62,777 bases of DNA, from the IMG/VR virus record IMGVR_UViG_3300022413_000011, positions 1 to 62,777 of that record; one strand, 5' to 3'. The stretch is from a virus (taxonomy: Duplodnaviria > Caudoviricetes). The translations under genes were made by a program, and so were the position numbers. Below, piece by piece: positions 3,425-59,992 of this stretch (within the stretch, counting starts at the first letter, position 1; each line of letters starts with the position of its first letter). The notes under the pieces were generated by a model. It made no database searches and had not been told where the DNA came from. It was given only the letters and a program-made list of their open reading frames with translations.

Positions 3425-3488
3425 TGTATTTGTACCACGCGGGCTAAAAAGCCCCGTGTAGAGCCCCTGGTGGGGTCACGGAGGACGT

Positions 3489-6832: not shown

Positions 6833-6843
6833 CAGGAGGAAAC

Positions 6844-7083: not shown

Positions 7084-7086
7084 ACA

Positions 7087-9090: not shown

Positions 9091-9317
9091 ACAATCTTCT
9101 GAATGGACCGTACCGGATTGGTGGACTTGTGGACTATGACGATAGTGACCCGAACAGCAGAGGACCATTTGTAATCATTGTGTCTGACTACGTGGACGGA
9201 AACGTGGCAGACGTGTACGGGGAAACCATCGTGAAAGCCGAGAAAATGGCCAAGAGTATCGTTGGCCTATTGAATACAATAGAGAACGTGAAGCGTGGAG
9301 GAAAATCTAATGTTTAA
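9084..9317 (+). CDS. Hypothetical protein
   Basis: Coupled ORF with GAGGGG RBS. Confidence 0.65.
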   Translation: MVNNLLNGPYRIGGLVDYDDSDPNSRGPFVIIVSDYVDGNVADVYGETIVKAEKMAKSIVGLLNTIENVKRGGKSNV

Positions 9318-9997: not shown

Positions 9998-10178
9998 CCA
10001 AGAAATAGCAGCAATTGACTTGCTTGCGCTGGTCTACGGAGAAAGCATCGGAGTGGACCTTCTTGAAGAGTGTTTTGTGTCACCCACTATGGAGGCTCAC
10101 AGAACCGATATCCTGGTGGACCTGATTGGAGCCATAAAGGATAGACGGGAAGAAATCAGAGCAAACTCTGATACATAG
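9990..10178 (+). CDS. Hypothetical protein
   Basis: ATG 9990 after AAGGAGG. Confidence 0.6.
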   Translation: MSDQEIAAIDLLALVYGESIGVDLLEECFVSPTMEAHRTDILVDLIGAIKDRREEIRANSDT

Positions 10179-26260: not shown

Positions 26261-27730
26261 CTATGAAGCATCTCCACTGGCAATGAATCCTGTGGATGCC
26301 TGTGCGTTTCCACAGACGAAAAACTTTCTGTCGTCACAGATGAACAGGTCGGTGAGCCCGGTGTTGGTTGGGACCGTAATGGGCTCCCAGTAGAATCCAC
26401 CCGTTACCGTGCGCAGCACAACGCTGTTTCCACCACCCGTGGTGTGAATCATGTAGCCAAGAATCTCGTTTCTAAACGCCATTTGCGCGATAGACCCGGT
26501 TCCCGACCCAGAGAATGTTCGCTGGGTCCAGGTGACACCGGCATCGGCAGTGCTATAGATGTTGCCGTTCCCATAGCCAACCCATGCGCGGTTTCGATCC
26601 AAGCATGTCACGGCTGTGATGTCTTGACCTGCCTGTGGACCAGTGATGGCCTCCCAAGCAACTCCACCGTCGATGGAACGGGCCAGCGCGTTACTCGCGC
26701 CCCCCATCCATCCATCGGTTGCACTTGAGAAGTGAATGTCATTGATTACACCAGTCGTGACAACCCCTGCATCCTGAACCGTCCAGGTCACACCAGAATC
26801 ATCAGACTTGTAGATGTATCCGTCATCGGTGCCAACGAAAACATTTCTCAGGTCATACGCGCTCAGTGATGTGACATACTGGCCAGTCACAACGCCCACG
26901 TCAACAGCGGTCCATGTTGCACCACTGTCATCGCTGTAGGCCACTTCTGCTGCTGCGCCTGCATCGGTCTCTGCTCGAGACACCACAACACGGAACTGGT
27001 CAGCACCGAGGTCCAAGCCCACGATGTCGCCACAATCCTCGTCAATCCCAAATGGGTCTGCTGCTGCTGCTGTCCAGGTTCCTCCAGAATCGGTGGTTTT
27101 CAAGACATTAGCTGTCACGCCAGCCCCGGCTGCGCAGGACGCATAGCCGATCTGACACGATTTGCGCGCGGGGGTTGTGGCCGTCCGCGGACGAGCATCA
27201 CCCACGAACACGATGCTATCAACGTTGTTCACTTCCGAAATCGCCTGTCTGGAGATGGCTTGCGCAGTCACCTTGATGACTGCCTCTGCTTCCAGGTCGT
27301 ACGTGTTCAGAGAGGCATCTGTCTCATCAGGGTCACGCGCTGCGATGTTCGTACTACCGCGGCTGGTAATCTTGGTGTTGACAAATGCTTGCGAACGCAG
27401 GTAATTGCTAAAGTTGTCCCGTCGTCCCGTGCGCACTTTGTGTGCAAACATGGTGAAAGGGAACGCTGGGTCAATCTTCTCCATCTCGGAAAGTGTGTCT
27501 GACATCGTCTCTTCCAACGAGAAGGACGGTGCGTCACCGGCTCCACGGATGGAGCCAACCACCTTGAATGCCCCAGCTTTTGTTTCGTCAGGGCAGTAAA
27601 TCAGGGTAATATCACCCTCTGGTATATCAACATCCCCCAAGCTGGCACACCCGATGTACATGGGTGCCGTATTGGGACCGTCGCTTTGAACCCAAAGAGA
27701 TGAATCACCACTGGTAAGAGTTTCAGCCAT
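26261..27730 (-). CDS. Major tail (tube) protein fused to an Asp-box/BNR beta-propeller
   Basis: Position before the chaperone; SDDSGATW, SDDSGVTW, SIDGGVAW, TADAGVTW repeats. Confidence 0.7.
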   Translation of the reverse strand: MAETLTSGDSSLWVQSDGPNTAPMYIGCASLGDVDIPEGDITLIYCPDETKAGAFKVVGSIRGAGDAPSFSLEETMSDTLSEMEKIDPAFPFTMFAHKVRTGRRDNFSNYLRSQAFVNTKITSRGSTNIAARDPDETDASLNTYDLEAEAVIKVTAQAISRQAISEVNNVDSIVFVGDARPRTATTPARKSCQIGYASCAAGAGVTANVLKTTDSGGTWTAAAADPFGIDEDCGDIVGLDLGADQFRVVVSRAETDAGAAAEVAYSDDSGATWTAVDVGVVTGQYVTSLSAYDLRNVFVGTDDGYIYKSDDSGVTWTVQDAGVVTTGVINDIHFSSATDGWMGGASNALARSIDGGVAWEAITGPQAGQDITAVTCLDRNRAWVGYGNGNIYSTADAGVTWTQRTFSGSGTGSIAQMAFRNEILGYMIHTTGGGNSVVLRTVTGGFYWEPITVPTNTGLTDLFICDDRKFFVCGNAQASTGFIASGDAS

Positions 27731-29434: not shown

Positions 29435-29845
29435 CTACACTCCCACCCTAAATGTTCGCCACATAGTGTATATCAAGATATGCACCATAAGACCAGAGAT
29501 CATCATCCTCGTGGCTGTGATGAGAGAGATAAGCTCATTGCCGAACGTGAACCCATCACTGGAAGACACGGAAGATATGTTTGCCATGTGCAAGAGGGTC
29601 ATTATCGCCCCTATATACAGTCCCATCTCGGAGAACAGGATGGACATTGGGTCGTGGCGAATCTTTGCGAACCTGTAGAGAAGAAGGGCGCACAGACACA
29701 CTCCACCCGCGGCAGATATTGGATAAATAAAGATTCTGAATTTCCAAAGTGCTTCCGGGCTGGCACTGAGTACCCCGATAAAGGCCAGCATCATCACGGA
29801 CACACGTATGGCCGATATTTTCAAATGTGCCATGTTATATCCCAC
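29435..29845 (-). CDS. Four-TM membrane protein
   Basis: Four hydrophobic helices. Confidence 0.7.
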   Translation of the reverse strand: MGYNMAHLKISAIRVSVMMLAFIGVLSASPEALWKFRIFIYPISAAGGVCLCALLLYRFAKIRHDPMSILFSEMGLYIGAIMTLLHMANISSVSSSDGFTFGNELISLITATRMMISGLMVHILIYTMWRTFRVGV

Positions 29846-30368
29846 CCGTGACTTGCAGACCGACTATGAGAAGACCCAAGAAAAGACTTAGAAAAATCAG
29901 GTAAAATATGTGCTCAGTATATCGTGTCCCCCTGTTTCCATCGGGGTATTTTCTAATCTTCAACTCTGCTTCCACGCGACCCATTCTGCTATCCACCTGC
30001 TCCAGGGTAACCTGGAGATATGCAAGCTTCTTGTATATTTCTAGTAACTCTTTGCCATTCAAGTTATCACCCTCACTGGAGTCTATAGTTATCCTGTTCC
30101 TGTAACCCCCACTCTCTTTCCAGTGATTGGATAAAACTAGGTTCTTTAGGTGTTGATTTCCTGGGTTCTCTGAAAACGAGCCTAGAACCAGGGCAGATAA
30201 CTTGTTTCTCCTCTGTGCCCAAGAGACTAGGTTGCCTACCACCTCAGTAAAGCTTTCTCCCCCTACTATATCGCCTAGGTCTTCGTCAAGATGTGTACGC
30301 ACAACACGCACCATTTCTGCCTTATTAAAGGCATCTAGTAAAGCCTCAACTATCTGTTCCCGGTCCAT
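29835..30368 (-). CDS. Effector-associated domain 1 (EAD1), coiled coil and C-terminal TM helix
   Basis: EALLDAF...LDEDLGDIVGG...VVGNLVSWAQRRNKLSALVLGSFSENPGNQHL matches the EAD1 pattern. Confidence 0.8.
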   Translation of the reverse strand: MDREQIVEALLDAFNKAEMVRVVRTHLDEDLGDIVGGESFTEVVGNLVSWAQRRNKLSALVLGSFSENPGNQHLKNLVLSNHWKESGGYRNRITIDSSEGDNLNGKELLEIYKKLAYLQVTLEQVDSRMGRVEAELKIRKYPDGNRGTRYTEHIFYLIFLSLFLGLLIVGLQVTGGI

Positions 30369-30374: not shown

Positions 30375-32846
30375 TTACACATTGTACGTTATCGTCCAAC
30401 TGTATGGAGGCAACTTCAGCGTTTCCAGGTTTGCCTGTTGCGCAGCAGATGGAGATGCGTTGCTCCCTTCCAGGCTAAGAGTAATGGCGTTATTGTAGTT
30501 ATCTCTAGCTGCCCATATATCATCGCAGACCTGGTCTACTTCGGTTGTTGTCCAACTACAACCGTGAAATCGCATTTGTGTCGCGTCCACCCACAGCCCA
30601 GCAGCACCACCAGTACCGTACGATACATTTGTGTTAGTCGATGTGTTGATTACATATATAGCTGTCAGGCTTGTCCACTCTGAAATATCAGCACTCACGC
30701 TTGTCGCATTTATATATACAATACTCAACCCAGTCAACGTGCCTATATCTTGTCCATCTCCTGACACGCCAGAACCACCAAAGTGCATATACGTTAGACT
30801 GGTCAGCGCACTCAGTACGGATATGTCGCCAGTCATAGAAGCATTGGTGTGTAGGCGTATCTCCTCCAGGCTAGTTAGTGCCGTCAAGTCCGGTAAGGCT
30901 GTAAGGCCCTGGTCAGGAGCATTGAAATCTGTCACGCTGGCAGCAGTCGGAAACTCCACCACCACGGTTTGACTAGACCCATCAAGCACCTTGCTCGGGC
31001 TGTTGTTGGTCTGAATCTCGCCATCCTCAAAATACGCGTTGGCCGTTCCACTGCTTAGTACAAATGTGGGGTCAAATGTACCATTTTTATCGGTTTCCAT
31101 TGACACCTGGTTTGCGATGCTGCCAATATCGTATGATGTTGCGCTGGTAAACCTTTGTGCAGCCGTCACCAAGTACGCATCCTCTGTCGGACTATACGTA
31201 TACACACGTATCTCCCCGACACTACGCATCATTTGATAGATTCGTAGATAGCCCTCACCACCTTCTGCTCTGTCTTGGTAGTTGGCTAGGTACTGATGGA
31301 CTACATTCCCACCGTCACGCGTGTCGTCCAGGGACCCAACCCCGGGAGACAGCACGTGACCACCATGCACCATTTTCACGTTTTCACGGGTCAGTAAAAT
31401 CTTGTTGTATATCTGACGACCATTGTTAATCGTCGTGGACTCGGAGCCTGTATCAAACTCGTTTTCTGGCAGGTACAGGTGGCCTGAATCACCATGCCGT
31501 GTGTCATCGGTATACATATAAGCATGTGTAGCGATGACAGTCAGGTGGTTTGGATAGGTGTCAATTATGCCCGCGGCCCATGACAGGACAGCATCGCGCG
31601 GCCCATACTCCAGGGTCATGAACAGATAGTCTTTGCCACCTAGACGCGCTGTGTAGTATGCGTTTTCGCTGCGTCCACCCTCGTAGAACCCACCGTTCCA
31701 CCAGGTTTCAGACGTATACCTCGACTGTGGGAATCGCGTATTAAATTCCGTCACATCGCTGCGTACTGGTGGACTACCACTCATGTTGTCGTAGTCATGG
31801 TTCCCTACAGAAATCAAGTGGGGAATGTTATTTGTCGCCAGTGTCGCCATGCCAGCCACACCATTATCCCACTGGCCAGACACATCATCGTCAACCACAT
31901 CCCCAACGTGCAGCACAGCACCGATTTTGTATTTGCTCTGATTTGAGACTATCCAATCTGTCTGGTCAGTAAATGTGACGGGATAATCCTGACTGTAGAA
32001 TTGTGTATCAGGCAGAATGACCAGAGACCAGTCAAGTCCACTCGAAAGTTGCATTGGGCGATTTAGTCCAATGTCCCACTTTTTGGACAGATAGTCCTCT
32101 GCTTGCTCCATCTCGCTGTCAGTGAGCCCAGCGCGGTACGCAAGGATTTCGCCATGCTGACCGTTAAACAACCAGTCCAGACCGACGAAATCGAAATCAC
32201 CCACGTTTGACAACGCATCAGCATCTTTTAGCGCGCCAGTATGCGCAACGGCTGCGCCCAGTTGAATGCCGTTCTGCCTGATGATCTGGTCTGTCCCGTT
32301 GTACCTGAAGGAGAATATGTTCCACCCAGTCAAAGGCTCATTCGGTGTCTCTGTGTGGTCCACCCTGGTGGTCGTTATTGTCGTAAACTGCACGTTACCA
32401 GTCGAACGAATAGCGCAGAAAAACGTGCCATTGGTACTGCTATCGTGCTGACTGAGAAGCATCTGGTCAATACTGTCCGTGTCAGCCTTGCACACGACGA
32501 AAACAGTCAAACCGGCTGCATAGAAATCAATCTCAGGGCCTACAAACTCGTCATTGCCACCCCAGTCAATGGTGTTCAGGCTATTTTTGGTAACCAGTGT
32601 GGACTGAGGCTGATTGGCCGTCACACCCTGTGTGAACGCGTGTGCATTGCTGCTCTTGTCGGTCCACTGACTGACATGTGTAGCATCAGCAAGAGCAATG
32701 GTAGACGTGTCGGACGCGTCCAACCACAGGGAGAGATTGTCAATGGTTGTTGGCAGGAACAACGATGAAATCGCCTCCCCCGTGACACCCACGCCAATCC
32801 CAGGGTCCAACAGGGCATAGTCTGTTACTCTATGACTGCCCAGCAT
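30375..32846 (-). CDS. LamG-like, calcineurin-like metallophosphoesterase and leucine-rich-repeat protein
   Basis: LWLDASD LamG-like start; PDTQ, GDVVD, GNHD, THAY, GHV motifs; LTALTSLEEIRL-type LRRs. Confidence 0.8.
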   Translation of the reverse strand: MLGSHRVTDYALLDPGIGVGVTGEAISSLFLPTTIDNLSLWLDASDTSTIALADATHVSQWTDKSSNAHAFTQGVTANQPQSTLVTKNSLNTIDWGGNDEFVGPEIDFYAAGLTVFVVCKADTDSIDQMLLSQHDSSTNGTFFCAIRSTGNVQFTTITTTRVDHTETPNEPLTGWNIFSFRYNGTDQIIRQNGIQLGAAVAHTGALKDADALSNVGDFDFVGLDWLFNGQHGEILAYRAGLTDSEMEQAEDYLSKKWDIGLNRPMQLSSGLDWSLVILPDTQFYSQDYPVTFTDQTDWIVSNQSKYKIGAVLHVGDVVDDDVSGQWDNGVAGMATLATNNIPHLISVGNHDYDNMSGSPPVRSDVTEFNTRFPQSRYTSETWWNGGFYEGGRSENAYYTARLGGKDYLFMTLEYGPRDAVLSWAAGIIDTYPNHLTVIATHAYMYTDDTRHGDSGHLYLPENEFDTGSESTTINNGRQIYNKILLTRENVKMVHGGHVLSPGVGSLDDTRDGGNVVHQYLANYQDRAEGGEGYLRIYQMMRSVGEIRVYTYSPTEDAYLVTAAQRFTSATSYDIGSIANQVSMETDKNGTFDPTFVLSSGTANAYFEDGEIQTNNSPSKVLDGSSQTVVVEFPTAASVTDFNAPDQGLTALPDLTALTSLEEIRLHTNASMTGDISVLSALTSLTYMHFGGSGVSGDGQDIGTLTGLSIVYINATSVSADISEWTSLTAIYVINTSTNTNVSYGTGGAAGLWVDATQMRFHGCSWTTTEVDQVCDDIWAARDNYNNAITLSLEGSNASPSAAQQANLETLKLPPYSWTITYNV

Positions 32847-39990: not shown

Positions 39991-40334
39991 TATTTTCCTG
40001 CGTCGGAAAGCATTCCAAACATGACGTAGGCAAACCCAGAGGCAGCAAACACAGCCACCGCGATGTTTACCCAGGGGACATACAGAAGGGCGAAACTAAT
40101 TCCCGATGTCCACACCATGTTGCACAGAATGCAGTGGTATGCCTTTGCAATCTCACGCCTCAACCCAGTAAGTTCCGGGTCCACCACTATTTCAGAATAC
40201 TCGTCATATCTCAGGCCAACAATGTACCTGAGAGTCTCGAACACATCGTACGGGCCATCTGTCAGCGTCAGTATCATCGACAGGCTAAACCCCGATGCTC
40301 CAGCAACGGCAGCATTAACCAGCAAGGAGACCAT
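39990..40334 (-). CDS. DUF1360-like membrane protein
   Basis: DGPYDVFETLR and CILCNMVW motifs with TM helices. Confidence 0.7.
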   Translation of the reverse strand: MVSLLVNAAVAGASGFSLSMILTLTDGPYDVFETLRYIVGLRYDEYSEIVVDPELTGLRREIAKAYHCILCNMVWTSGISFALLYVPWVNIAVAVFAASGFAYVMFGMLSDAGK

Positions 40335-40848
40335 TGGCCATTTCCTTAACCTTCCCGGCCATGACTTTACCGAATCCCTTAATCTTTACCAGGTCATCCA
40401 CGCTGGCAAGAGCAACCTGTCTGACCTCCGTGTATCCATTATCGCGGAGGACATTTACATGGCGCTCCTGAAGATTTAGGTCATCCAGGGTGGGGTCCTC
40501 CACGCGCGGTTGCACCTCTGGAGTCTCCAGAGAGGACCGTATGTCCTCTAGGGACTCTACGGGCTTTTCGGGAGCCTTCTTTTCTACTGGAGGAGCGCCC
40601 TGGTCTTCCATGACAATAAACATATGGCTTTTAGCGTGCTGTTCTTGTACGAAGAACACCTCGCCATTCTTTCTGTGCCCGTAAGACACCGGGCCAGTGG
40701 GACTGGACAGGATAACTGAGTGTCTGCCAGCGTTCCCGTCGTTCAATTTTACTTTTACAAGATTTTCCATAATAAGTGACCTCCTGGAGACAGGGGTGCC
40801 TGCTCTAGGTGCAGGCACCCCCGATCCACCACAGCTTCTACAACCCAT
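40315..40848 (-). CDS. Helix-hairpin-helix protein with N-terminal GCxxCGG
   Basis: LRDNGY...ASVDDLVKIKGFGKVMA. Confidence 0.75.
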   Translation of the reverse strand: MGCRSCGGSGVPAPRAGTPVSRRSLIMENLVKVKLNDGNAGRHSVILSSPTGPVSYGHRKNGEVFFVQEQHAKSHMFIVMEDQGAPPVEKKAPEKPVESLEDIRSSLETPEVQPRVEDPTLDDLNLQERHVNVLRDNGYTEVRQVALASVDDLVKIKGFGKVMAGKVKEMANGLLAG

Positions 40849-44026: not shown

Positions 44027-45685
44027 TTATACATTTCCCTGTGGCTGTGCCGAGGCTTCAGCCTGATCATTCGTTCCCTCCAGGGGGTTTTCCTCCTGAA
44101 GAGACTCCTCCAATGCAGCCACCTCTACAAGCGACTCGGACTCCACCCTGAGTTTCTCAAGCGCAGCAATAGAGAGTCGTATGCGCCATCGTCTCTTCTC
44201 GCCCTGTATCGCATTCAAAGCCGTGTACGCTCTCTCCAGAGCATCTGTTGTCTCTTCAAGAACGACATCGGCGTTTTCGGATGTCATCCTTACCGGACGT
44301 GTGACTTCTTTGAGCAACAGTTCAATCATGGGGTCACTGGAGTAAAACAACGAATAGACATCGTCCCCGTCCGGGGTTCGCCCATCGGAAAGCTCGAGTG
44401 TTTCAAATTCGAATTTTGTAATCTCACCCTTACGCATCATCATCATGCGCTGGGTTCGTGTGTCAGTTAGACCACTGGCCACATCCCTGCTGCGCGCGGT
44501 GGCGCGCATAGCATGGATTCGTGCCGTGGCCTCATCCTGCGAATCGTCCAGTGAGTCAAAGGTGGCAGACAACCCTTCAGGGCAGTATTTCTCAGTGAGT
44601 TGCTCTGCCAGGTCGTCTGTAAACTCTTTCAATCCTTTTGTTTTCAGCTTGCGATCCATCGTCTCCGCGTCGCCCTTGGTGGCTCCCTGTAAGCCAAAGG
44701 CGATGTTCAGGTCTCGCAAGTCAAGGCCAAACGCTGAAGCAACCACGGACATATCTATCAGATATGTTTCCGTGCGATTGAACCCGTCCGGTGTTCCTGC
44801 CAGGTCTATTTTGTTCAGCTTCAGACTGGACGCGGCCATCTTGGGTGCCAGCAAGAGGGTCTTTGAGAAATAATCGTTACCAGATGCAGAAAGCTTCACA
44901 TGGTGGGCACCCACAGCCGACTCGATTTGGTCCACTGTCGCCCCGGTTTCCACGTAGAGTATCTGGCGCGCTGGCTTACTCCCTAGCTTCTCCTCTAGGT
45001 AGCTAGAAATCGCCTTCTGCTCTCTGGCAGACTCCAGACACGAAGAGACCGGACAAAAGCCCACACCGTTAAGTTCAGGGTCGGGGTTTGGCAGCTTCGT
45101 CATATGGACAAGGCGCGTATGGTGTATGGGGTACTGCTGCATATCGGTGTGGGTGTATACAATGGGGTATTCAGGGGAACTAGTCCTCATGCAGAGGGCA
45201 CTTTGCATGTGTGCTAGGCCATATGGTCTCCCAACAATAGGCCCGTCCTTGTTCCCCTGGCCCAGGACAAGCATAAATGCACCGTTATCCTGGGTTAAAT
45301 AGTCCTGCACAAATTTCTGTAGCTCATTCCTCAGTCCACCCATCATGCCAGAGTTTCTCATGAGGGAGACTCGCATCTCCTCGGCCATCTTGACCATTCT
45401 GGAGACACTTCTGTCATCTGCTTCAATGGTGAGAGGGACAGACAACAGCTTGCTCGTAAATGTGACGATGGATATTTTGAGTACATCGGCGTCAAACGCC
45501 AGTTTTCTTAGCGCGGAGTCACGGTGCGCACTCCAGTACGGGGGAATACCAGATACGCTGCCCGGGAGCAGAAAGGCGACGCGATGACTCATCCCACTGC
45601 TGTCGGCATCCGTCTCCGTTTCCCAGGGCGCGCCTGACATAACCTCTTGTAATTTATCAGGCATAATCCATTCCCATTCCGTCAC
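44027..45685 (-). CDS. Portal protein
   Basis: Between terminase and protease; DYLTQDNGAF, GFCPV, VASAFGL. Confidence 0.8.
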   Translation of the reverse strand: MTEWEWIMPDKLQEVMSGAPWETETDADSSGMSHRVAFLLPGSVSGIPPYWSAHRDSALRKLAFDADVLKISIVTFTSKLLSVPLTIEADDRSVSRMVKMAEEMRVSLMRNSGMMGGLRNELQKFVQDYLTQDNGAFMLVLGQGNKDGPIVGRPYGLAHMQSALCMRTSSPEYPIVYTHTDMQQYPIHHTRLVHMTKLPNPDPELNGVGFCPVSSCLESAREQKAISSYLEEKLGSKPARQILYVETGATVDQIESAVGAHHVKLSASGNDYFSKTLLLAPKMAASSLKLNKIDLAGTPDGFNRTETYLIDMSVVASAFGLDLRDLNIAFGLQGATKGDAETMDRKLKTKGLKEFTDDLAEQLTEKYCPEGLSATFDSLDDSQDEATARIHAMRATARSRDVASGLTDTRTQRMMMMRKGEITKFEFETLELSDGRTPDGDDVYSLFYSSDPMIELLLKEVTRPVRMTSENADVVLEETTDALERAYTALNAIQGEKRRWRIRLSIAALEKLRVESESLVEVAALEESLQEENPLEGTNDQAEASAQPQGNV

Positions 45686-46985
45686 AATCGTTCAAAAATG
45701 TGACAGAGTATCTTAGAGTATCACACGAGTGATCGTGTATCTTTTTTGGTTTCTCTTGCACACCGTCTTTATTCTCTGCCCACACGTATCCGGGGATTTC
45801 CTCTATGATTCCACTGGGCAACCCCTTTTCCTCGCAGACCTCATCTGGTTCTTCGAGACATCCAGAATAAATCGTCAGAGAGGGTCTCCCGTCGTCATCG
45901 AGTTCGAGTTTCTCAGACACCCTTTCGATGCCATATAACACGTCGTTGTTTGCTGGCACAGCAGGTAGTCCTGCTTCAACAAATTGCTGTAGAAACTCTG
46001 GCCTGGCAGGGTCACAGACAAAGATGTCTGGGTGATATATGGCCGACAACTCCCTAGCCTTTTCAATCCACCACTCTATGGTTCTCTGAGTCTTGGACAC
46101 CTCGTGCAAGACGCGCACATCGCGTTTTACATCCATAGAGGAGACCATCATCGTCCCCCTGCTGGTGTATCCCCAGTCAACACCCACTGCCGTGATTGTT
46201 GTGACTTCTGGGTTGGGCAGGATATGGGTGTTGTCCCAGAGTGTGGCTGGCGTTTTTGTGCCACGAACCGTAGCGTCCAGCATTTTTTGTCTGGACACCG
46301 AGTGAATACTGTCATTCCAGTCCCAGATGACGCCTTCGGACTGAGCCCATTTCCCCTCTAGCAGACGAAGTCTCGTAACCCCTGTTAGCTTTCTTAGAGA
46401 CTCTATATAGTCGTCTGGGTTATATGGGTTGTCCAGGGGACCTGCCTCGTACACAGAGGCTTCTCCCCCTAGTATCAGCCTCCTGCGAATCCAGTGCATT
46501 GGGCCATCTGGATTTGTAGACAGAATAATCTGCCTCCAGGGTGCTGCTTGCCCTCTCATGCGCCCCAGAATCTCGTTGTAATCGCTCTCGAGGAATCTGG
46601 TTGCCTCTTCCATCCAGGCTATATCAATAGACCCTGCTTGCCCGATGGAGCGAATCGCTTCTTTCTGCTCCTCATCGGCCATGCCTCCATAAGCCAGGAT
46701 GCTACCGTTTGCATACTCAAATCTAAGCTTGGACGAGAAATGACGTATGAATGGGTCGCCCTGCACCACCGTTCTCTCGAACATCAGAACGGTGGAGTTT
46801 GTCATACTTTGTCGCTTTTTGCGCAGCATGACCCCCATTGCGTCGGGATACTTCCTGAGATACGCATCCATCTTTTGGGCTGCGCACATACTGCGCCCTG
46901 CTCCAGCAGGACCAGACAAGAGAACAGTAGATGACTTGTCCCGAAGTGGGGGAATTTGCCACGCCAATGGCGTAAAAGAATTCAC
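45657..46985 (-). CDS. terL: Terminase large subunit (PBSX-like)
   Basis: SGPAGAGRS, AWMEEA, LSTNP, RLLEGKW, GVDWG, DHSCDTLRY. Confidence 0.93.
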   Translation of the reverse strand: MNSFTPLAWQIPPLRDKSSTVLLSGPAGAGRSMCAAQKMDAYLRKYPDAMGVMLRKKRQSMTNSTVLMFERTVVQGDPFIRHFSSKLRFEYANGSILAYGGMADEEQKEAIRSIGQAGSIDIAWMEEATRFLESDYNEILGRMRGQAAPWRQIILSTNPDGPMHWIRRRLILGGEASVYEAGPLDNPYNPDDYIESLRKLTGVTRLRLLEGKWAQSEGVIWDWNDSIHSVSRQKMLDATVRGTKTPATLWDNTHILPNPEVTTITAVGVDWGYTSRGTMMVSSMDVKRDVRVLHEVSKTQRTIEWWIEKARELSAIYHPDIFVCDPARPEFLQQFVEAGLPAVPANNDVLYGIERVSEKLELDDDGRPSLTIYSGCLEEPDEVCEEKGLPSGIIEEIPGYVWAENKDGVQEKPKKIHDHSCDTLRYSVTFLNDCDGMGMDYA

Positions 46986-47459: not shown

Positions 47460-47843
47460 TTATTCCTCTATTAGAAATTCCTCTTCTTGTACTTCGATCT
47501 CAACATCATCCCAGTCATCTGGCGTAAACCCGATGAATGCCTTGATTTCTCCGTTGTTGATGATTTGGCCGTCCTTGTATTTATCAGGTTTGTGTGCCTT
47601 CAGCATCTTTTCTAGGAGCATATCGCTGTCCGATAATGCCCGTCTCCCTGCTTCACCCTCCAGTCGGTCGGCAAAGTCGGATTGGGCATCATCGAATTCT
47701 TCCTTAAACTGGGGGTTGTCTCGAATAGCCTTTCTGACGACACTGGAACTCACCCCAGCCTCCAGGGATGCCTCGTAAATGTTTCCTTTTACTATGTATG
47801 ACTCCAGAAACGCTGGCATCCAGATACCGTCAGAGATACTCAT
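47460..47843 (-). CDS. terS: Terminase small subunit
   Basis: WMPAFL...GNIYEAS...FKEEFDDA...LEGEAGRRA...SDMLLEKMLKAHKPDKY. Confidence 0.75.
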   Translation of the reverse strand: MSISDGIWMPAFLESYIVKGNIYEASLEAGVSSSVVRKAIRDNPQFKEEFDDAQSDFADRLEGEAGRRALSDSDMLLEKMLKAHKPDKYKDGQIINNGEIKAFIGFTPDDWDDVEIEVQEEEFLIEE

Positions 47844-47910
47844 GGGCCTACTAATACAACATGCGCATCCTAATGTCAACTGACGGAATACATCAGTATC
47901 CTTACAGGAA

Positions 47911-47992
47911 ACATTTTTTCCGGAAAAATCTGGAAAAATCTGGAAAAATGTGGATTTTTCCGGAAAAATCTGGAAAAATCCACATTTTTCCG
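47911..47992. repeat. 10-bp-phased GGAAAAAT array with nested palindromes
   Basis: 20-bp inverted repeat 47942-47961/47972-47991; 18-bp palindrome 47953-47970. Confidence 0.92.
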
Positions 47993-48000
47993 GCGAATCC

Positions 48001-48029: not shown

Positions 48030-48070
48030 GCTGCATAGTGCTGCACGAAACGATAAAAATAGGAGGGGTT

Positions 48071-48445
48071 ATGAGTATGAGACCGTCAGTAAACCTAAAC
48101 ACACCAGAATTGGTGGAAATGTTTGAGGTTGTAGCAGAGAGGGTTAGAAGATTTCATCCAAAGGCCAGTGACTCAGATGTGTTTATCCTGATATTGGTGG
48201 ACAAGTACAACTACTACACAGATCCACATCCAAAAAAGGAAAGCGAGTCAAGTCTGGCCAGAATAGAGAATATGCTGAAGGTTCTGCTAGACGAAAAGGG
48301 CGTGGAGTACATCCCCCCATACAAAGACATGGATTTTTCCGACTGTGACAATCCATATATCGAAGAGATGAGTTTGTCCGATGCCCTTGATGTTTTCCAT
48401 ACCGTAAGGGATGCGATAGGCAATAATAGCACATCCCAAATTTGA
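48071..48445 (+). CDS. Hypothetical protein, possible DNA-binding regulator
   Basis: AGGAGG RBS; beta-helix-helix-like N-terminus. Confidence 0.65.
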   Translation: MSMRPSVNLNTPELVEMFEVVAERVRRFHPKASDSDVFILILVDKYNYYTDPHPKKESESSLARIENMLKVLLDEKGVEYIPPYKDMDFSDCDNPYIEEMSLSDALDVFHTVRDAIGNNSTSQI

Positions 48446-48470
48446 CATTCGCCCAAATGTACGGTATGAT
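48442..48470 (+). promoter_or_regulatory. Sigma70-type promoter
   Basis: TTGACA-17 bp-TATGAT. Confidence 0.8.
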
Positions 48471-48496
48471 AATCACATGGACAGAAAGGAGGCAGT

Positions 48497-50041
48497 ATGC
48501 CGAACAGAAAAATTGTGGGGCTGGCAACCCTGTATGTTGCCCTGACGGGTGCAATGGGTCTACTTGTGTATATGGGCCTCACGGCAGTGGGGGCACAGGT
48601 AGACCCATTGGTTATTACCGTCATTGCCGTGCCAGTCACAACGCTGATTTTTGTGTGGATAATGAATAGCCAAAAAACTAGCCCTAGAAAAAACAGAGAA
48701 TTGGACTTCGTGGTGCCAGTGCATCGCGCGTCCGCGCCACCCACGGATAGCTCTCCACCAGTTACCCAAAAAGCCAAGAAGGTTGTCACGGACGCAGACC
48801 TTCTGGCCCTGCGAGAAGCGTCAAACAGAGAGGAGTGGGGGATTCGGTTTGGCAAAGGGAACGTGCTGTCTCGCCACACGGTATACTCTCTGTGGCTGGC
48901 GAATGGGGTCACCTCCAGGAATGTCCTTAAACTAAGGGACCATATGGCAGACATTATATATAGGGGTCGTGGGAACCAAGGCGAACAGAGAGTAAAAGTC
49001 ACCTTCGTGTCTCAGCCAGCCACCATAATAGTGCCACGCCTAAATCCAGACATCCTGAGATACTCCGACGCACCCACACCCGGGTCGTACACGGCAAACC
49101 TGGGGGTAACGGCATCGTACCCAGAAAAAGATGTCTCTGTGAACCTTGGGGGAAACAGCGAGTTCTCTCTTCTAATAGGTGGGGCTCCTGGTAGTGGGAA
49201 ATCAAATCTACTAGATGGCATCATCGTACAGTTGGCCATGCACAACTCCCCAGAGGACATCCAGTTTATCCTGGCAGACATGAACGAGAAGCACCTGTCC
49301 CCGTATGAGCGTATCCCCCACGTGAGGACTATGGTGAAGACCCCTGGGGAGATGATGAAACAAATCAGATGGATAAAGGAGCATCTGTTCAAAGGCAAGG
49401 ACGGGGATTTCTCCCAAAGAACCGTCCTAATTGTAGACGAGGCAGACTGGTACACGGGCACCCATGACTCTAACCCGAACGTACGGTCACTGCGTCATGA
49501 GTTAACCCTGATTGTAAACAAGGGTAGAGGTTTTGGCGTGTCAGTCATAATGGCAACGCAGAAACCATCAAACGACAATATGCCAACCAACCTGCGAGAC
49601 GCCTTCCCCACCAGAATTTCTGGCAAAACGGGGAGTGTCCCTCAGTCAACAATGATTTTAGGCCCTGGGTTCGACCAAGGGGCTTACCTCTCCGGGGAGG
49701 GCCACTTCTTTATCCAGGGACGAGAACAGGAGCGCGAGTTTCTCTCGTACCTTGTGGAGGACAGGGAGAAGGAGATACAGAGGATTGTTGAGAAGTGGCC
49801 AGGGTTTTCTAGGGGAGGAACATCGGTTGACGATGTGGAAATACCGGAAAGAGTTCTGGCTGTCTTCAGAGAGTGTGACGATGGTCTGGGAAACCTGTCT
49901 GGCCACAAGGTGAAGGCAATGAAGGCCCTGTCATCTGTTCTAGGCAGGTCTCACGCTGGAGACAACTACGCAGAGTTTACAGAGCGTGTGAATGAAATGG
50001 TAGACAAGTACAGGAGGGACAACCATGAGCATGGAGTATGA
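48497..50041 (+). CDS. FtsK/SpoIIIE-family ATPase with two N-terminal TM helices
   Basis: GGAPGSGKS, LIVDEAD, KGRGFGV, ATQKP, GAYLSGEGHF. Confidence 0.9.
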   Translation: MPNRKIVGLATLYVALTGAMGLLVYMGLTAVGAQVDPLVITVIAVPVTTLIFVWIMNSQKTSPRKNRELDFVVPVHRASAPPTDSSPPVTQKAKKVVTDADLLALREASNREEWGIRFGKGNVLSRHTVYSLWLANGVTSRNVLKLRDHMADIIYRGRGNQGEQRVKVTFVSQPATIIVPRLNPDILRYSDAPTPGSYTANLGVTASYPEKDVSVNLGGNSEFSLLIGGAPGSGKSNLLDGIIVQLAMHNSPEDIQFILADMNEKHLSPYERIPHVRTMVKTPGEMMKQIRWIKEHLFKGKDGDFSQRTVLIVDEADWYTGTHDSNPNVRSLRHELTLIVNKGRGFGVSVIMATQKPSNDNMPTNLRDAFPTRISGKTGSVPQSTMILGPGFDQGAYLSGEGHFFIQGREQEREFLSYLVEDREKEIQRIVEKWPGFSRGGTSVDDVEIPERVLAVFRECDDGLGNLSGHKVKAMKALSSVLGRSHAGDNYAEFTERVNEMVDKYRRDNHEHGV

Positions 50042-50510
50042 CATCCAAAGAATGCCAGAAGTCGATGAGGGGGTAACCAAGTCCTGGTCGTACAAAGCTG
50101 TGTTTCTGGGCAACCTAGCTGCCCTGATTGTCGTCATCATCGTGACCCTCGCTGGGATTGTCGCATACGTCCACTGGATTCTAGGAGAAACTGCTGGTAT
50201 AATTACGGCAATTGGATTCATCCTGGTTGCAGTCATGATTCTCATCCTGTTTCTGCATGACAGAAGTCAGGAGCGACACGTGGCACACCTGATGGGCACC
50301 GTGCAGGTTGCCCTACGGCACATTGGCCCCGCGATGAGAACGGACCTGGAGGAACAGGCCAAGACACACTGGGGTGGGGTACGGCAGGAGCAGAGATACT
50401 TTACAAACAGCGCACTCCTAGAAAAGCAGACGGATGAACGCCTGCGCGCCTCGCAGGAAAAGGTGGGACACCAGTTCAGTGCGCCACCGGAAGGATGGGA
50501 AGACGAATGA
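50025..50510 (+). CDS. Two-TM membrane protein coupled to the FtsK-like gene
   Basis: Two hydrophobic helices; overlapping start. Confidence 0.75.
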   Translation: MSMEYDIQRMPEVDEGVTKSWSYKAVFLGNLAALIVVIIVTLAGIVAYVHWILGETAGIITAIGFILVAVMILILFLHDRSQERHVAHLMGTVQVALRHIGPAMRTDLEEQAKTHWGGVRQEQRYFTNSALLEKQTDERLRASQEKVGHQFSAPPEGWEDE

Positions 50511-50872
50511 GGAGACTCACGAAAGATGGACGGACGCAGAGCATAACGAAATGGGCCAAGGAATTAGGTATATCTAGCCCCACGATATACAGAAGGTTGG
50601 ATCGTGGGGATACGGACGAAAGAGCACTGAGACCCGTTAGGGAGAAACTTGACAAACCTGACGCGTACGATGAGATAATCAGAATCTATCTCGACGCCCA
50701 AACCACTCCATCCATTAGACAGGTGGCCGACGAGATGGAGATGCCCGTCTCCACCATCGGGGACAGAATCCAGGAAATGGTGAAAAAGGGTCTGCTGAAA
50801 AAGGGCTCTGGGTCTCACAAGAACCTTTATGTTCCACAGGAGGGAGACAACAATGGGCCTCAACAAGCATGA
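50507..50872 (+). CDS. Double HTH protein (C-terminal LexA-N-like winged helix)
   Basis: WAKELGISSPTIYRRL; TPSIRQVADEM...STIGDRIQEMVKKGLL. Confidence 0.75.
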   Translation: MRRLTKDGRTQSITKWAKELGISSPTIYRRLDRGDTDERALRPVREKLDKPDAYDEIIRIYLDAQTTPSIRQVADEMEMPVSTIGDRIQEMVKKGLLKKGSGSHKNLYVPQEGDNNGPQQA

Positions 50873-51392
50873 GCAGATGCAGTTGTTTAGCAACGTTTCA
50901 ACTGAAACCAGGGAAAAAGCCCTGACAGACTACCCAGAATTGGCTTCTATAATTTTGGCCGCGAAGTCTCCCAATGGGAAACAGAATGGTCCTCACAAGC
51001 ACAATGCTGCCAGGACAGAGGTCGATGGGGTGAAGTATGACTCAACTGGTGAGAAGGACCGTCACTATGTCTTGATGCAGTGGCAGGAGACTGGCATTAT
51101 ATCCGGTCTAAAGCTGAAACCGACCCTGGTCGTTCAGGAGAAGTTCTCCTACAGAGGAAAAAAGTTTCAGCAAATAACGTGGACCCCGGATTTTAGGTAC
51201 TACGATAAAGAGTATGGCGTGTGGGTGTTTGAGGACTGGAAGAGAATGGACAAGAAGACTGGCAAGGCTTACATGACAGAGGATTTCAAGGTGAAAATCA
51301 AGATTGTGTTGTTCCGTTACCCAGACAATCACTTTTTCATTAACTGCCATCCGTACGGGAGGTACTCAGGGTCCCTGTACAGCACTGATTGA
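50853..51392 (+). CDS. DUF1064-family PD-(D/E)xK nuclease-like protein
   Basis: HKHNA...VDGVKYDS.GE, WTPDFRY, EDWK. Confidence 0.75.
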   Translation: MGLNKHEQMQLFSNVSTETREKALTDYPELASIILAAKSPNGKQNGPHKHNAARTEVDGVKYDSTGEKDRHYVLMQWQETGIISGLKLKPTLVVQEKFSYRGKKFQQITWTPDFRYYDKEYGVWVFEDWKRMDKKTGKAYMTEDFKVKIKIVLFRYPDNHFFINCHPYGRYSGSLYSTD

Positions 51393-51417
51393 CAATTTGG
51401 CAAAATCATGCTATGAT
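51389..51417 (+). promoter_or_regulatory. Sigma70-type promoter
   Basis: TTGACA-17 bp-TATGAT with TG. Confidence 0.8.
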
Positions 51418-51422
51418 AATCT

Positions 51423-51509
51423 CACTGTTTGTCATCGCTCATGATTAAACAGTGTCCTTTCATATGGAATAGGTCTCGGGATGGTGAATCTCCCGAGACC
51501 TATTTTTTT
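51423..51509 (+). ncRNA. Candidate ~87-nt small RNA
   Basis: Consensus promoter and terminator with no ORF between; 5' hairpin and anti-SD segment. Confidence 0.6.
51468..51509 (+). terminator. Intrinsic terminator
   Basis: AATAGGTCTCGGGA/TCCCGAGACCTATT followed by a T-run. Confidence 0.85.
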
Positions 51510-51519
51510 GCCTGACTTC

Positions 51520-57803: not shown

Positions 57804-58112
57804 ATGAAGGTGATGAAAGCAATAGTGTGGGTGAAAGATGGAGAAGCAACGTTTCTGGATGCCAAGAGCCCTGACGACATCCAGTTGGAAACAATCGACA
57901 TGCTTGGTGGTCATTTCCCCCTGACAGACCTTTTCTCTAGGTCTGACGACATTGAGCAGGTGCAGGATTTCGTGGGCACGTTGCAAAACGGGCTACACGA
58001 GATAGGCATCATGACGAGGCGACTGGAATTTGCCGAAATCGACATAAAACCAGTCTACTGTGTGGGTTCTCGAATCATATCAAATTTAGTCCTATATTTA
58101 CACACAGGATAA
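57804..58112 (+). CDS. Hypothetical protein
   Basis: AAGGAG RBS. Confidence 0.7.
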   Translation: MKVMKAIVWVKDGEATFLDAKSPDDIQLETIDMLGGHFPLTDLFSRSDDIEQVQDFVGTLQNGLHEIGIMTRRLEFAEIDIKPVYCVGSRIISNLVLYLHTG

Positions 58113-58123: not shown

Positions 58124-59089
58124 ATGAACAAAATCACACTGACGGACAGCGTGTACCCTGTTGGAGCCGACTTGGGAAACGGTTTTGTTAACCTATACAT
58201 GCAGGACCGACACGCTGGCCTACCGGCTGGATACATGCTCGAGAAACCCACAGGCCCATACGACCCCAAGCGCATGTCATACAAATCCCCAAAGGCGCAA
58301 GAGATTGTCGTCAACGATAAAACCGTATGGGTTGGCCGCGATACTCTCACTGACAAGATGGTGAGATACCTGGACGACACAAAGTACGACAAAGAGCATC
58401 TTCGTATCCTGTTCAGTGCAGGGTTGGCAGAATGGCTTTCCCTGACGAAGGCAAGCACCGAAGAAACGCTACGTCTACGCGTGGCATGTGGGATGCCAGC
58501 CGAAAAGTTCCAGGACCCCAAGAACCGCGCGCTTGCCGAGAAAGCGTACAAGGCTGCTTTTAAGGTGACTAACTCGGACCAGTGGCGCATCACGGTCGGT
58601 GGCAAAAGGATACGTCTGCTGACCGAGTTTGCTGGACTCAGACCCGAGACCGTTGGGTACGCTTGCGTAAGCAAGTTGCACAAAGGGTACACGGTGTTGA
58701 TGGACTGTGGTGCGGGAACCGTCGATGTGTGTGTGTTCCATAGCTCCCAACAGAAAACCCCCATAACTGTAAAATCCTTCAACATAGGGCTCATACACGC
58801 GTTTGACGACATCAACCCCATGCAGATGGACCTACCAGAACTCCTTCTGATTCGTAAGGAGATTGATCCATCGGTACTTAACCCGTACGTGGCGCAAATC
58901 AAGACGCTGACCACAAAGTTCTGTCGCAGGCTCGAAGTGAAGGGGCAGGAAATCAGGGTAAAAATTATTGGGGGCTTGCCTCACCTGATGAGCAAGGAGC
59001 AGCGCGCGTCTCTCTCAATGGGGATACCAGTCGTGTTTGGTGATGCTGGAGAAAACGCGCGGGCGTTTGCTAACTACGCTGGAGAGTAG
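58124..59089 (+). CDS. parM: Actin-like partition ATPase (ParM/StbA family)
   Basis: Phosphate-1 GADLGNGFVN, connect ACGMP and RPET, phosphate-2 MDCGAGTVD, adenosine IIGG. Confidence 0.85.
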   Translation: MNKITLTDSVYPVGADLGNGFVNLYMQDRHAGLPAGYMLEKPTGPYDPKRMSYKSPKAQEIVVNDKTVWVGRDTLTDKMVRYLDDTKYDKEHLRILFSAGLAEWLSLTKASTEETLRLRVACGMPAEKFQDPKNRALAEKAYKAAFKVTNSDQWRITVGGKRIRLLTEFAGLRPETVGYACVSKLHKGYTVLMDCGAGTVDVCVFHSSQQKTPITVKSFNIGLIHAFDDINPMQMDLPELLLIRKEIDPSVLNPYVAQIKTLTTKFCRRLEVKGQEIRVKIIGGLPHLMSKEQRASLSMGIPVVFGDAGENARAFANYAGE

Positions 59090-59159: not shown

Positions 59160-59435
59160 ATGGAAATCAGGTTCAGATTAGATGCCGTGGTAGATGTAAA
59201 ATTTTTGGAGAAATTCTCTCCCCTGGTGAACGCTGGTGCTTCACAGGGGGACGCGTTCCGCGCGTCTCTGCAACAACTACTACTAGAGGCAGAGAGGGGT
59301 GGCGTGATACTGGCCCTGTCCAGTCAGCCCCCAATGGTCAACAACTACGCCACACCGAGCACCAGCATGGGGAAGGCTGTGGAGACAGACTCCGACCCAT
59401 TTGATGTGGATTTTGACGATATTGTAATCAGTTAA
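59160..59435 (+). CDS. Putative ParR-like adaptor
   Basis: Small gene after parM; EIRFRLD beta-strand, helices, acidic disordered tail. Confidence 0.55.
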   Translation: MEIRFRLDAVVDVKFLEKFSPLVNAGASQGDAFRASLQQLLLEAERGGVILALSSQPPMVNNYATPSTSMGKAVETDSDPFDVDFDDIVIS

Positions 59436-59886: not shown

Positions 59887-59893
59887 TCGTTCT

Positions 59894-59977
59894 GAGGGCA
59901 TAGCTCAATGGGAGAGCGACACTGAGGTTGGGTCCCTCTGTACTGTGTAGATGTGGGTTCGATTCCTACTGCCCTCG
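59894..59977 (+). tRNA. tRNA-like element with an enlarged anticodon arm (identity undetermined)
   Basis: Acceptor GAGGGCA/TGCCCTC, D-arm TAGCTCAATGGGAGAGC, T-arm GTGGG-TTCGATT-CCTAC; no encoded CCA. Confidence 0.7.
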
Positions 59978-59992
59978 TTTTAAGGAGACATC

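Follow-up and report, generated by a model that had tools for sequence, protein, structure and literature searches.

A membrane-anchored FtsK-type ATPase and its small membrane partner, found in a tailed phage and in Chloroflexota integrative elements, form a candidate module for DNA transfer

The IMG/VR virus record IMGVR_UViG_3300022413_000011 (Duplodnaviria; Caudoviricetes), analysed here over its whole length and called the window, comprises 62,777 bp, is classed as linear by IMG/VR and is 81% complete by the CheckV estimate. Its plus strand carries a cassette in which the gene for an FtsK/SpoIIIE-type ATPase is translationally coupled to the gene for a small protein with two transmembrane (TM) segments. 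The ATPase has the alpha/beta motor fold of FtsK, intact catalytic motifs and a TM anchor of its own, and the same two genes stand side by side in Chloroflexota genomes, in one case on an integrative element. From these comparisons we propose that the cassette may be a captured minimal module for the transfer or spread of double-stranded DNA (dsDNA), a reading that we consider possible with the odds somewhat against it.

The ATPase, its partner and their operon

The cassette and the region just upstream of it hold the following features.

47914-47993, both orientations: array of the 10-mer CYGGAAAAAT, seven exact copies and one with one mismatch, in 10-bp phasing
48038-48445, plus strand: upstream open reading frame (ORF), longest frame 135 aa, preceded by TTGCTT-17-TATAAT at 48001-29
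48442-48470, plus strand: predicted sigma-70-type promoter TTGACA-17-TATGAT (11/12), 27 nt 5′ of the ATPase start codon
48497-50041, plus strand: FtsK/SpoIIIE-type ATPase, 514 aa (PF01580, phrog_1358, AlphaFold model)
50025-50510, plus strand: two-TM partner, 161 aa, overlapping the ATPase stop by 17 nt and with its own AGGAGG
50495-50872, plus strand: double helix-turn-helix (HTH) protein, 125 aa, sharing 16 nt with the partner gene; one HTH lies at the N terminus and a winged HTH at the C terminus
50829-51392, plus strand: DUF1064 protein, 187 aa, last gene of the operon (PF06356, 1.9e-12; phrog_190, 1.9e-19), overlapping the HTH gene
51389-51417, plus strand: second promoter TTGACA-17-TATGAT with an extended TG motif (11/12 or better)
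51468-51511, plus strand: intrinsic terminator closing the operon, formed by a second hairpin at 51468-51504 and T7

The ATPase matches PF01580 (E 6.7e-16, 58.8 bits against a cut-off of 24; 60.5 bits in a six-frame search) and the PHROGs family phrog_1358, 'FtsK/SpoIIIE-like' (E 2.1e-38). In the AlphaFold model (pLDDT 81.7) two N-terminal TM helices at residues 4-30 and 37-58, with which hydropathy agrees, are followed by a disordered linker (61-96), an FtsK-like alpha/beta motor (about 100-440) and a C-terminal three-helix domain (451-511). The motor retains its Walker A (G232/G234/K235), Walker B (D314/E315) and TQKP (354-357) motifs. All 15 aligned family sequences have G232, G234, K235, D314, E315, Q355 and P357 in common, and several arginines are likewise invariant; the TQKP and TRI motifs are invariant or aligned across the 15 members, and hhalign places the motifs on GTTGSGKS, DE and ATQRPS of FtsK. 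A profile comparison with 14 bona fide FtsK sequences gave a probability of 99.8% (E 9.4e-29, about 300 columns), with residues 125-442 of the ATPase aligned to 331-689 of FtsK and the alignment ending before the gamma domain.

The best Foldseek matches of the model were FtsK motor domains of E. coli and P. aeruginosa, DNA-bound forms included (2ius, 6t8g, 6t8b; E 1e-22 to 1e-21, 389-414 columns, TMt 0.63-0.71). Next came the coupling protein TcpA (2e-17, about 375 columns, 13-14% identity); single EccC/EssC domains aligned over about 280 columns, and HerA matched far more weakly. Fold and motifs therefore place the ATPase in the FtsK/SpoIIIE superfamily, with a DNA-translocase-type fold. Neither the FtsK 4TM domain (PF13491) nor the gamma winged helix (PF09397) was found in the Pfam scan of the protein at E<=0.01. 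The C-terminal domain, of about 70 residues, is conserved in the 15-member family alignment and is modelled with confidence as three helices (pLDDT 82.4). Its best VIA match (Z 5.0), to homeodomains, lies within noise.

The partner has strong hydropathy segments at 31-49 and 59-77 and a charged cytoplasmic tail. It found no named family in ESM Atlas, where the best feature score was 0.86. Prediction of a complex between ATPase and partner scored 0.00, a value that, with the controls not run, gives no verdict for or against binding. The third protein of the operon matches many HTH families at both ends (HTH_24, 6.3e-08) as well as phrog_3377, the DNA-binding part of HNH endonucleases (2.1e-11), and is a candidate regulator or DNA-site adaptor. 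The DUF1064 protein is nuclease-like, and its family, phrog_190, is labelled Holliday-junction resolvase in PHROGs.

An earlier note, made by a model from the letters of the window, had described a consensus promoter driving a two-TM FtsK-type ATPase, a coupled two-TM protein and an HTH protein, and each of these elements was found, the promoter being near-consensus. Downstream of the promoter at 48442-48470 come a ribosome-binding site, AAGGAGG, and the start codon at 48497, an ATG. Across the window only two sites match the consensus at 11/12 or better, both on the plus strand and both in the cassette (48442 and 51389); the average in first-order Markov simulations was 0.43 such sites, and 6 of 100 runs contained two or more. 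At looser thresholds a local scan counted 6 promoter-like sites against 5.0 +/- 3.0 expected, which is no enrichment, and we treat the promoter at 48442 as a good prediction, not a demonstration. The note had also called the cassette separately promoted and ended its operon at 50872. It does have its own predicted promoter, but exclusivity did not hold up, as the upstream ORF 48038-48445 has a -10 TATAAT and no terminator was found between this ORF and the ATPase gene; the two may be co-transcribed. The likelier start of the upstream ORF is the ATG at 48072, after an AGGAGGGG, and its product had no Pfam, PHROG, PADLOC or NCBIfam match. The operon, likewise, contains the three genes named but runs on through the DUF1064 gene to the terminator.

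About 89 nt 3′ of the second promoter (to 51512) form two hairpins, with a minimum free energy of -34.7 kcal/mol (z -5.66) that none of 200 shuffles equalled. We read 51389-51512 as the operon terminator and a candidate small RNA, for which no Rfam family matched. At the other end, 0.5 kb upstream, the 10-mer array forms nested palindromes in the intergenic region from which terS and the cassette diverge. All seven exact CYGGAAAAAT copies of the window fall in this array, and with up to one mismatch 13 copies were counted against 6.99 expected. The array could be an operator, a packaging (pac) site, or a clt-like or centromere site; it lies at a position in which one would also look for a pac site or for an operator of divergent promoters.

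The gene pair in Chloroflexota and the family of the ATPase

For the search for related loci alignment A1 was too divergent as a query, and a smaller alignment (A2) was used. Back-translated patterns found three genomic loci, all in metagenome-assembled genomes (MAGs) of Chloroflexota: a Chloroflexota bacterium, a Caldilinea sp. and a Caldilineaceae bacterium. In each of them (L002, L003 and L004) the ATPase gene is directly followed by a gene for a two-TM homologue of the window's partner, of 163-174 aa. These homologues share 21-28% identity with the window's partner and a common motif after the second TM segment, and tblastn detected the one in L002 at E 8.6e-08. By tblastn, ATPase and partner are the only proteins that the window has in common with L002, L003 and L004. 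Wherever a locus held a close family member and its flanks could be read (four of four), the ATPase was coupled to the conserved two-TM partner.

In the Caldilineaceae genome (G001) the pair belongs to a compact element.

L005:14129-18406 and L004:612-9932 (genome G001, contig C1, about 869,100-883,000): element of about 14 kb resembling an actinomycete integrative and conjugative element (AICE)

Its gene order is tyrosine integrase (PF00589, 3.7e-25), 198-aa ORF, 843-aa prim-pol/helicase (PF22763, 2.2e-29; phrog_1829, 5.3e-94), winged HTH protein, HepT toxin and a 501-aa weakly Rep-like protein, continuing with ParB, ParA with an HTH_17 head, a 71-aa ORF, the ATPase and the partner. Two-component genes of the host follow, and ordinary transport and regulatory genes lie upstream of the integrase. 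Among the ORFs scanned with Pfam and PHROG, none in the element matched a virion, relaxase or VirB4 family. This layout of integrase, replication protein and FtsK-like gene with no type IV secretion system (T4SS) resembles that of an AICE. A 100-aa ORF without a family match adjoins HepT and may encode its antitoxin.

The Caldilinea locus (L003) repeats the block of Rep-like protein, ParB, ParA, ATPase and partner beside different host genes. A palindrome, ACCTAGTACG(T)..(A)CGTACTAAGT, is common to the starts of the ATPase genes of L004 (7504-7527) and L003 (4736-4759), and is probably an operator. In L002 an HNH endonuclease gene lies just upstream of the ATPase gene, with conflict cargo (nSTAND1-EAD1, Phd) and, at the far end, two tRNA-Met genes. 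Five to six direct copies of an approximately 11-bp repeat, GGTAAGGC(A/G)NG, spaced 60-120 bp apart, occur at 3978-4260 of L002, upstream of and into the HNH gene. Neither the palindrome nor this repeat resembles the 10-mer of the window. A family scan of 401 Chloroflexota genomes matched 7 at E<=1e-40, with a close member in G001 alone; the other six carry shorter paralogues without the C-terminal domain. At paralogue loci a two-TM ORF lay within about 1 kb downstream in 3 of 9, an association too loose to use.

A second clade of the ATPase, similar to P0137 and found in a metagenome scan, lacks TM helices of its own. In all seven contigs that reach downstream, a TM ORF of 117-120 aa lies directly 3′ of the ATPase gene, and six of the seven have a further two-TM ORF of 82 aa; phage-family genes without an assigned function occur on two contigs. 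The window-type partner and the 117-120-aa partners compare weakly (hhalign probability 13%, E 0.0021).

The family itself is rare. A word-indexed search of 5.8 billion proteins returned only distant FtsK proteins (best non-self E 8.6e-12, 26% identity), and an exhaustive search of 1.84 billion cluster representatives gave 17 proteins, the query included, at E<=1e-30. P0121 aligns to the window's ATPase over its full length at 35% identity, and the next relatives are about a dozen single-domain proteins of 420-620 aa at 26-32%. Of the 17 members, 11 have one or more predicted TM segments at the N terminus, and one member, P0122, comes from a Chloroflexota MAG. Among the clusters of the wider clade, one is mislabelled EcfA2 and another labelled 'FtsK/SpoIIIE-like'. 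No confirmed relative was found in the IMG/VR viral contigs scanned with the window's ATPase, alignment A2, the L022 protein and P0121. The closer relatives also include giant proteins of about 2,760-3,075 aa (P0127, P0133-P0136, P0139, P0141 and P0145), each with 7-11 FtsK-type stretches.

We placed the ATPase in a tree of 81 motor domains (LG+G4, quick search), whose deep branches are weak. Its rows were the 17 family members, 40 further single-domain and 9 multi-domain matches, six named FtsK proteins, TcpA, TcpB, pIJ101 Tra, two Streptomyces TraB-like proteins, and one mycobacteriophage and three Bacillus phage proteins. The window's ATPase pairs with P0121 (99) inside the starred clade of 30 rows, all unnamed single-domain proteins. 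A separate group (87) unites FtsK and the Streptomyces Tra proteins with the mycobacteriophage protein and with those of the Bacillus myoviruses Mater and Juglone. TcpA and TcpB have a branch of their own, 8 of 9 EccC-like multi-domain proteins also stand apart, Bacillus phage Finn gp64 was unplaced and P0144, a family row, fell into the sister clade. Forcing 16 family rows together with the three Tra and TraB-like rows cost 47.6 lnL and was rejected (AU test, p-AU 0.016), for a group that was defined after the tree had been seen and on a quick-method tree. NCBIfam scores were all far below their cut-offs (EccCb 53 bits, EssC 49, FtsK 42, TraB 23). By these sequence comparisons the ATPase is outside the FtsK, TraB, TcpA and type VII secretion system (T7SS) families, in a rare unnamed clade of single-domain proteins with a C-terminal helical domain of its own. 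The FtsK-type motor named in the earlier note was upheld; membership of the TraB family was not.

The record, its host and the possible roles of the cassette

The window is a fragment of a phage genome, because ORFs run off both of its ends, cut inside genes. Virion genes occupy the minus strand and stand alongside replication genes and a gene for a ParM-like actin-like protein (ALP).

1-10178, plus strand: replication block with primase, initiator, clamp, methylase, DnaB, single-stranded DNA-binding protein (SSB) and a CI-like HTH protein
19382-25327, minus strand: tape-measure protein, 1,981 aa
44027-45685, minus strand: portal
45657-46985, minus strand: large terminase subunit, TerL
47460-47879, minus strand: small terminase subunit, TerS; with portal, TerL, tape-measure and tail-fibre genes, part of the virion block
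58124-59089, plus strand: ParM-like ALP (PF17989, 3.9e-07; NF010498, 4.4e-08; phrog_691, 3.4e-09)
59893-59978, plus strand: tRNA-Pro, anticodon AGG, just downstream of the ParM-like region, the single tRNA and single Rfam match of the record

As the earlier note had said, no relaxase or T4SS genes turned up: a six-frame search of this one, 81%-complete record matched neither relaxase (PF03432) nor VirB4 (PF03135), and the Pfam and PHROG scans of 65 selected ORFs lacked both families too. The six-frame search also matched neither tyrosine integrase (PF00589) nor serine recombinase (PF00239). Status as a phage-plasmid is suggested by the ParM-like gene together with this lack of an integrase match in a record that is cut at both ends. 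Small ORFs at 57804-58112 and 59160-59435 flank the ParM-like gene and could be ParR-like.

Other parts of the record are of interest in their own right. A 177-aa protein inside the virion and tail block (29835-30368, minus strand) carries Effector-associated domain 1 (EAD1; PF19955, 2e-11), and in L002 an nSTAND1 NTPase next to the ATPase locus (138-2162) begins with this domain too. EAD1 is a conflict-system domain, so its presence in a phage structural module is odd. Two tail-region proteins may be receptor-binding or wall-degrading modules: one of 489 aa (26261-27730, minus strand) with BNR/Asp-box, Sortilin-Vps10 and PSII_BNR-like repeats, the other of 823 aa (30375-32846, minus strand) with a calcineurin-like phosphoesterase domain. 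In the head module a 177-aa protein (40315-40848, minus strand) matches, in its C-terminal part, the C-terminal domain of the alpha subunit of RNA polymerase and helix-hairpin-helix (PF03118, 2.8e-06). A protein search found window proteins encoded on another contig, of 80,458 bp, and found no relatives of the clamp. At the nucleotide level megablast found no match for 40000-62777 in the phage collection. Among named phages the terminase finds its best relatives in Streptomyces phages, at just 29% identity.

The host is weakly indicated to be a filamentous member of the Chloroflexota, a link that is drawn from the module itself and from the two named TerL relatives. TerL has many relatives; the two named ones, among 11 clusters checked, are Chloroflexota MAGs (Anaerolineae and Caldilineaceae; 44-45% identity). 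Chloroflexota are a filamentous, single-membrane phylum, abundant in wastewater and hot-spring communities. Lineages of Caldilineaceae, Caldilinea and Anaerolineae are described as multicellular filaments in a review (PMC6753630). The filamentous lineages of the named relatives are consistent with the idea of spread along a filament and are not independent proof of it.

If the cassette is a transfer module, the ATPase would be anchored in the cytoplasmic membrane by its two-helix hairpin and would form a hexameric FtsK-type ring that pumps dsDNA with ATP. The two-TM protein would be its membrane partner, bound to it and serving as an anchor, as a channel or as an adaptor at the septum. Selection of the DNA may fall to the C-terminal domain, to the HTH protein or to the 10-mer array, and the pair would move the dsDNA of its element across a membrane or cross-wall, in conjugation-like transfer or in spread along a filament. 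ATPase and partner would then be a mobile two-gene unit common to a tailed phage and to non-phage integrative elements of filamentous Chloroflexota. In elements of the G001 type the pair is the only candidate transfer function, so movement of dsDNA across a membrane or septum would be its most likely job. The more specific scenario, in which a phage of a probably filamentous Chloroflexota host captured an AICE-like dsDNA-conjugation module and pumps its own genome through septal cross-walls or cell contacts, spreading without virions along a filament or into adjacent filaments, we consider doubtful.

Several observations weigh against a role in transfer or filament spread. The ATPase is not TraB-specific, scoring 23.2 bits against a cut-off of 800 with the plasmid_TraB profile NF041214, over a 42-residue stretch. 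The partner showed no similarity to Spd, KilB or TcpC/D/E proteins by profile or single sequence, and a comparison with pIJ101 SpdA, SpdB, orf66 and KilB and the neighbours of two TraB-like genes (22 sequences) gave 5.9 bits at best (E 0.011). The likeness to Streptomyces TraB and Spd seen in the earlier note accordingly extends to a motor with a small, coupled membrane partner and stops short of family homology. Foldseek, at E<=0.001, returned no match for the C-terminal domain, which showed no homology to the gamma domain of FtsK either. In the G001 element no flanking direct repeat of at least 16 nt (att) was found, and mobility is inferred from gene content and the differing flanks. The pair adjoins parA-parB in L003 and L004, the two units diverging, an arrangement that fits segregation as well. 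TerL matched only 3 of the 401 Chloroflexota genomes, at 32-33% identity. FtsK-like matches occur in 250 of 50,697 phage records, of which 178 are from Bacillus and 52 from Mycobacterium, and the best-scoring named relatives of the motor profile are phage proteins of such unicellular hosts. In Bacillus and Mycobacterium smegmatis filament spread cannot be the role of these genes, as the hosts are unicellular. Finally, genomic context was read for a minority of family members.

The pair might instead serve segregation, its motor clearing low-copy extrachromosomal copies of the prophage or element from closing septa, and perhaps resolving multimers, together with ParM or ParAB and the DUF1064 protein and only during division. 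Septal DNA clearance is the cellular job of FtsK, whose fold and motifs the ATPase shares. The neighbourhood of parA-parB in L003 and L004, the ParM-like gene in 62.8 kb without an integrase, and the resolvase-type DUF1064 gene at the end of the operon all point the same way. However, G001, G002 and G003 encode full-length FtsK of their own (ORFs of 803-953 aa), the G001 element is integrated, so that clearance from septa would matter to it only in the excised state, the window's ParM gene is 8 kb away from the cassette, and no FtsK gamma domain and no XerCD-type recombinase came to light. On balance we find a role in segregation unlikely. Intracellular handling of phage DNA, as presumed for the FtsK-like proteins of Omega and of Bacillus myoviruses, would have the motor run along phage or host DNA at the membrane, for replication, concatemer processing or host takeover, with no membrane crossing. 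FtsK-like phage genes have been recorded from phage Omega onwards and have no assigned function, according to PMC3706429 and PMC4197329. Such a role would suit the frequency of FtsK-like genes in phage records and the PHROGs category of the ATPase's family, 'moron / host takeover'. Phage proteins are the top named references in the motor profile (134 bits for the cluster J phage protein and 99-113 for Bacillus phages, against 66+52 for FtsK, 64+19 for TcpA, 51-55 for the TraB-like proteins and 29 for pIJ101 Tra), and the tblastn alignment to cluster J phages reaches residue 511, covering the C-terminal region. Yet Porcelain, Mater and Juglone lack TM helices, Finn gp64 has one weak segment, and Porcelain, the sole neighbourhood scanned, has no adjacent TM ORF. 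Moreover, the reference phage proteins group with FtsK and not with the window's clade, and the pair is present in a non-phage integrative element. We hold intracellular DNA handling to be distinctly unlikely.

The remaining alternatives have less in their favour. As cargo for exclusion or defence, ATPase and partner would block or expel incoming foreign DNA (superinfection or entry exclusion), from which the resident element would profit. They form a self-contained unit with its own promoter at the edge of a mobile element, beside toxin-antitoxin and STAND/EAD1 genes in L002 and L004, and PADLOC reports weak similarities to mad8 (1.8e-14), SspH (9.6e-10) and HerA (1.1e-08). These matches are partial, covering stretches of a generic P-loop core (residues 303-385, for example), no known system is complete, and the fold is nearest to FtsK and TcpA rather than to HerA-type defence ATPases; we judge exclusion improbable. 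A DNA-entry motor, with the cassette on the genome end that enters first and the membrane pump reeling in the rest as in the second-step transfer of phage T5, would be in keeping with a cassette that sits beside terS, a probable packaging site and the unique repeat array, holds the window's only two promoter matches at 11/12 or better, and encodes an ATPase that the model predicts to be membrane-anchored. On an integrative element without virion genes, however, phage entry cannot be the job of the pair, and we know of no precedent for an FtsK-type entry motor, though no search was aimed at one; we consider this idea very improbable. Export of a small protein by a stripped-down relative of the T7SS ATPases EccC and EssC is hard to credit as well. 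EccCb and EssC are the top NCBIfam similarities, multi-domain EccC-like proteins are numerous among the exhaustive-search matches, and the PDB profile search puts EccC (8.2e-34) level with FtsK (3.1e-34). But the scores with the T7SS profiles TIGR03924, TIGR03925 and TIGR03928 (43-53 bits) lie far below the cut-offs of 346-778 and come mainly from the P-loop region. The protein has one ATPase domain, not three in tandem, and Foldseek aligns it over about 400 columns to FtsK, alpha domain included, against about 280 to EccC/EssC. The multi-domain proteins occupy a separate part of the tree, and Pfam found no WXG100-like neighbour.

Significance and comparison with known systems

Single-motor dsDNA conjugation has been characterised mainly in actinomycetes. 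If transfer is indeed the function of the cassette, it would show TraB-style, single-motor dsDNA conjugation to exist beyond the Actinomycetota, in a distinct FtsK clade that has a membrane partner of its own, and would give the phage a third route of transmission beside lysis and vertical inheritance. Even if that proves wrong, the ATPase is a compact, well-folding, membrane-anchored FtsK motor, and its partner could inform how such pumps are coupled to membranes. FtsK-like genes in phages and minimal FtsK-motor conjugation are already known, and PMC4447253 already suggests, for SpdB2 homologues in actinophages, a role in the spread of phage DNA through the mycelium. The presence of a concrete two-gene unit in a tailed phage would make that suggestion about spread proteins (PMC4447253) directly testable. 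New here are the separate, unnamed FtsK clade with its C-terminal domain and conserved two-TM partner, and the occurrence of the pair both on AICE-like Chloroflexota elements and in a tailed phage. In open-access papers and bioRxiv we found no report of such FtsK modules on Chloroflexota AICE-like elements and, among the matches listed, no phage-borne transfer motor.

Compared with cellular FtsK and SpoIIIE, the ATPase has the same alpha/beta motor fold and catalytic motifs but is shorter, with 514 aa and two TM helices as opposed to 730-890 aa with 4TM and gamma domains, neither of which was detected in it. TcpA of Clostridium perfringens pCW3, of the Tn916 Orf21 type, is close in build, with two N-terminal TM helices and one FtsK domain (527 versus 514 aa), and pCW3 also carries ParM. 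TcpA, however, works with the relaxase TcpM, a VirB4-like ATPase and several Tcp membrane proteins, and the window yielded none of these. Phage-encoded single-domain motors are likewise known from mycobacteriophage Omega, cluster J and Bacillus Herelleviridae, and the FtsK-like proteins of cluster J also have a divergent C-terminal domain according to PMC3706429. They differ from the window's ATPase in their TM segments, with none predicted in Porcelain (cluster J), Mater gp56 or Juglone gp225 and one weak segment in Finn gp64, in that Porcelain has no TM partner among the neighbours scanned, and in that the cluster J, Mater and Juglone proteins group with cellular FtsK in the tree and come from unicellular hosts.

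TdtA, which serves transjugation of ICEth1 in Thermus thermophilus, is described in PMC5365140 as an orphan hexameric ATPase of the FtsK/HerA superfamily on an element of about 15 kb that exports DNA without a T4SS. In that description, on which our comparison is based, TdtA is HerA-like, whereas HerA structures match the window's ATPase far worse than FtsK does. The single-motor principle is described for other lineages too (PMC13492992, PMC5365140). AICEs combine an integrase, a replication protein and an FtsK-like transfer gene in about 9-24 kb, as set out in PMC2440964 and PMC3218068. The Caldilineaceae element is alike in its size of about 14 kb, its tyrosine integrase, its prim-pol and its FtsK-like ATPase with a small membrane protein, and it has toxin-antitoxin cargo; it differs in belonging to Chloroflexota, in carrying ParA and ParB and an ATPase of another clade, and in that no att was found.

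The closest parallel in design is Streptomyces TraB, or pIJ101 Tra, with its Spd proteins. In Streptomyces plasmids an FtsK-type motor and small membrane proteins, encoded by translationally coupled genes, constitute the whole transfer machinery according to PMC4447253. The dsDNA is transferred by the motor on its own, with the small proteins assisting its passage through walls and septa (PMC4447253, PMC13492992). As far as these systems are described there, the cassette resembles them in having a single membrane-associated FtsK-type ATPase as motor, a translationally coupled gene for a small integral membrane protein, and neither relaxase nor T4SS. A regulator gene in the locus, the pIJ101 order tra-spdA-spdB and, if the host assignment is right, a filamentous host extend the likeness. 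Against this, the Streptomyces regulator is of the GntR type and the HTH protein of the cassette is not, the C-terminal winged HTH of TraB binds 8-bp direct repeats (clt) whereas the C-terminal domain of the ATPase gave no significant fold match, and the carriers are actinomycete plasmids on the one hand and a tailed phage and Chloroflexota elements on the other. A transfer role for the cassette would be analogous to that of Streptomyces TraB and Spd, and not homologous to it at the family level.

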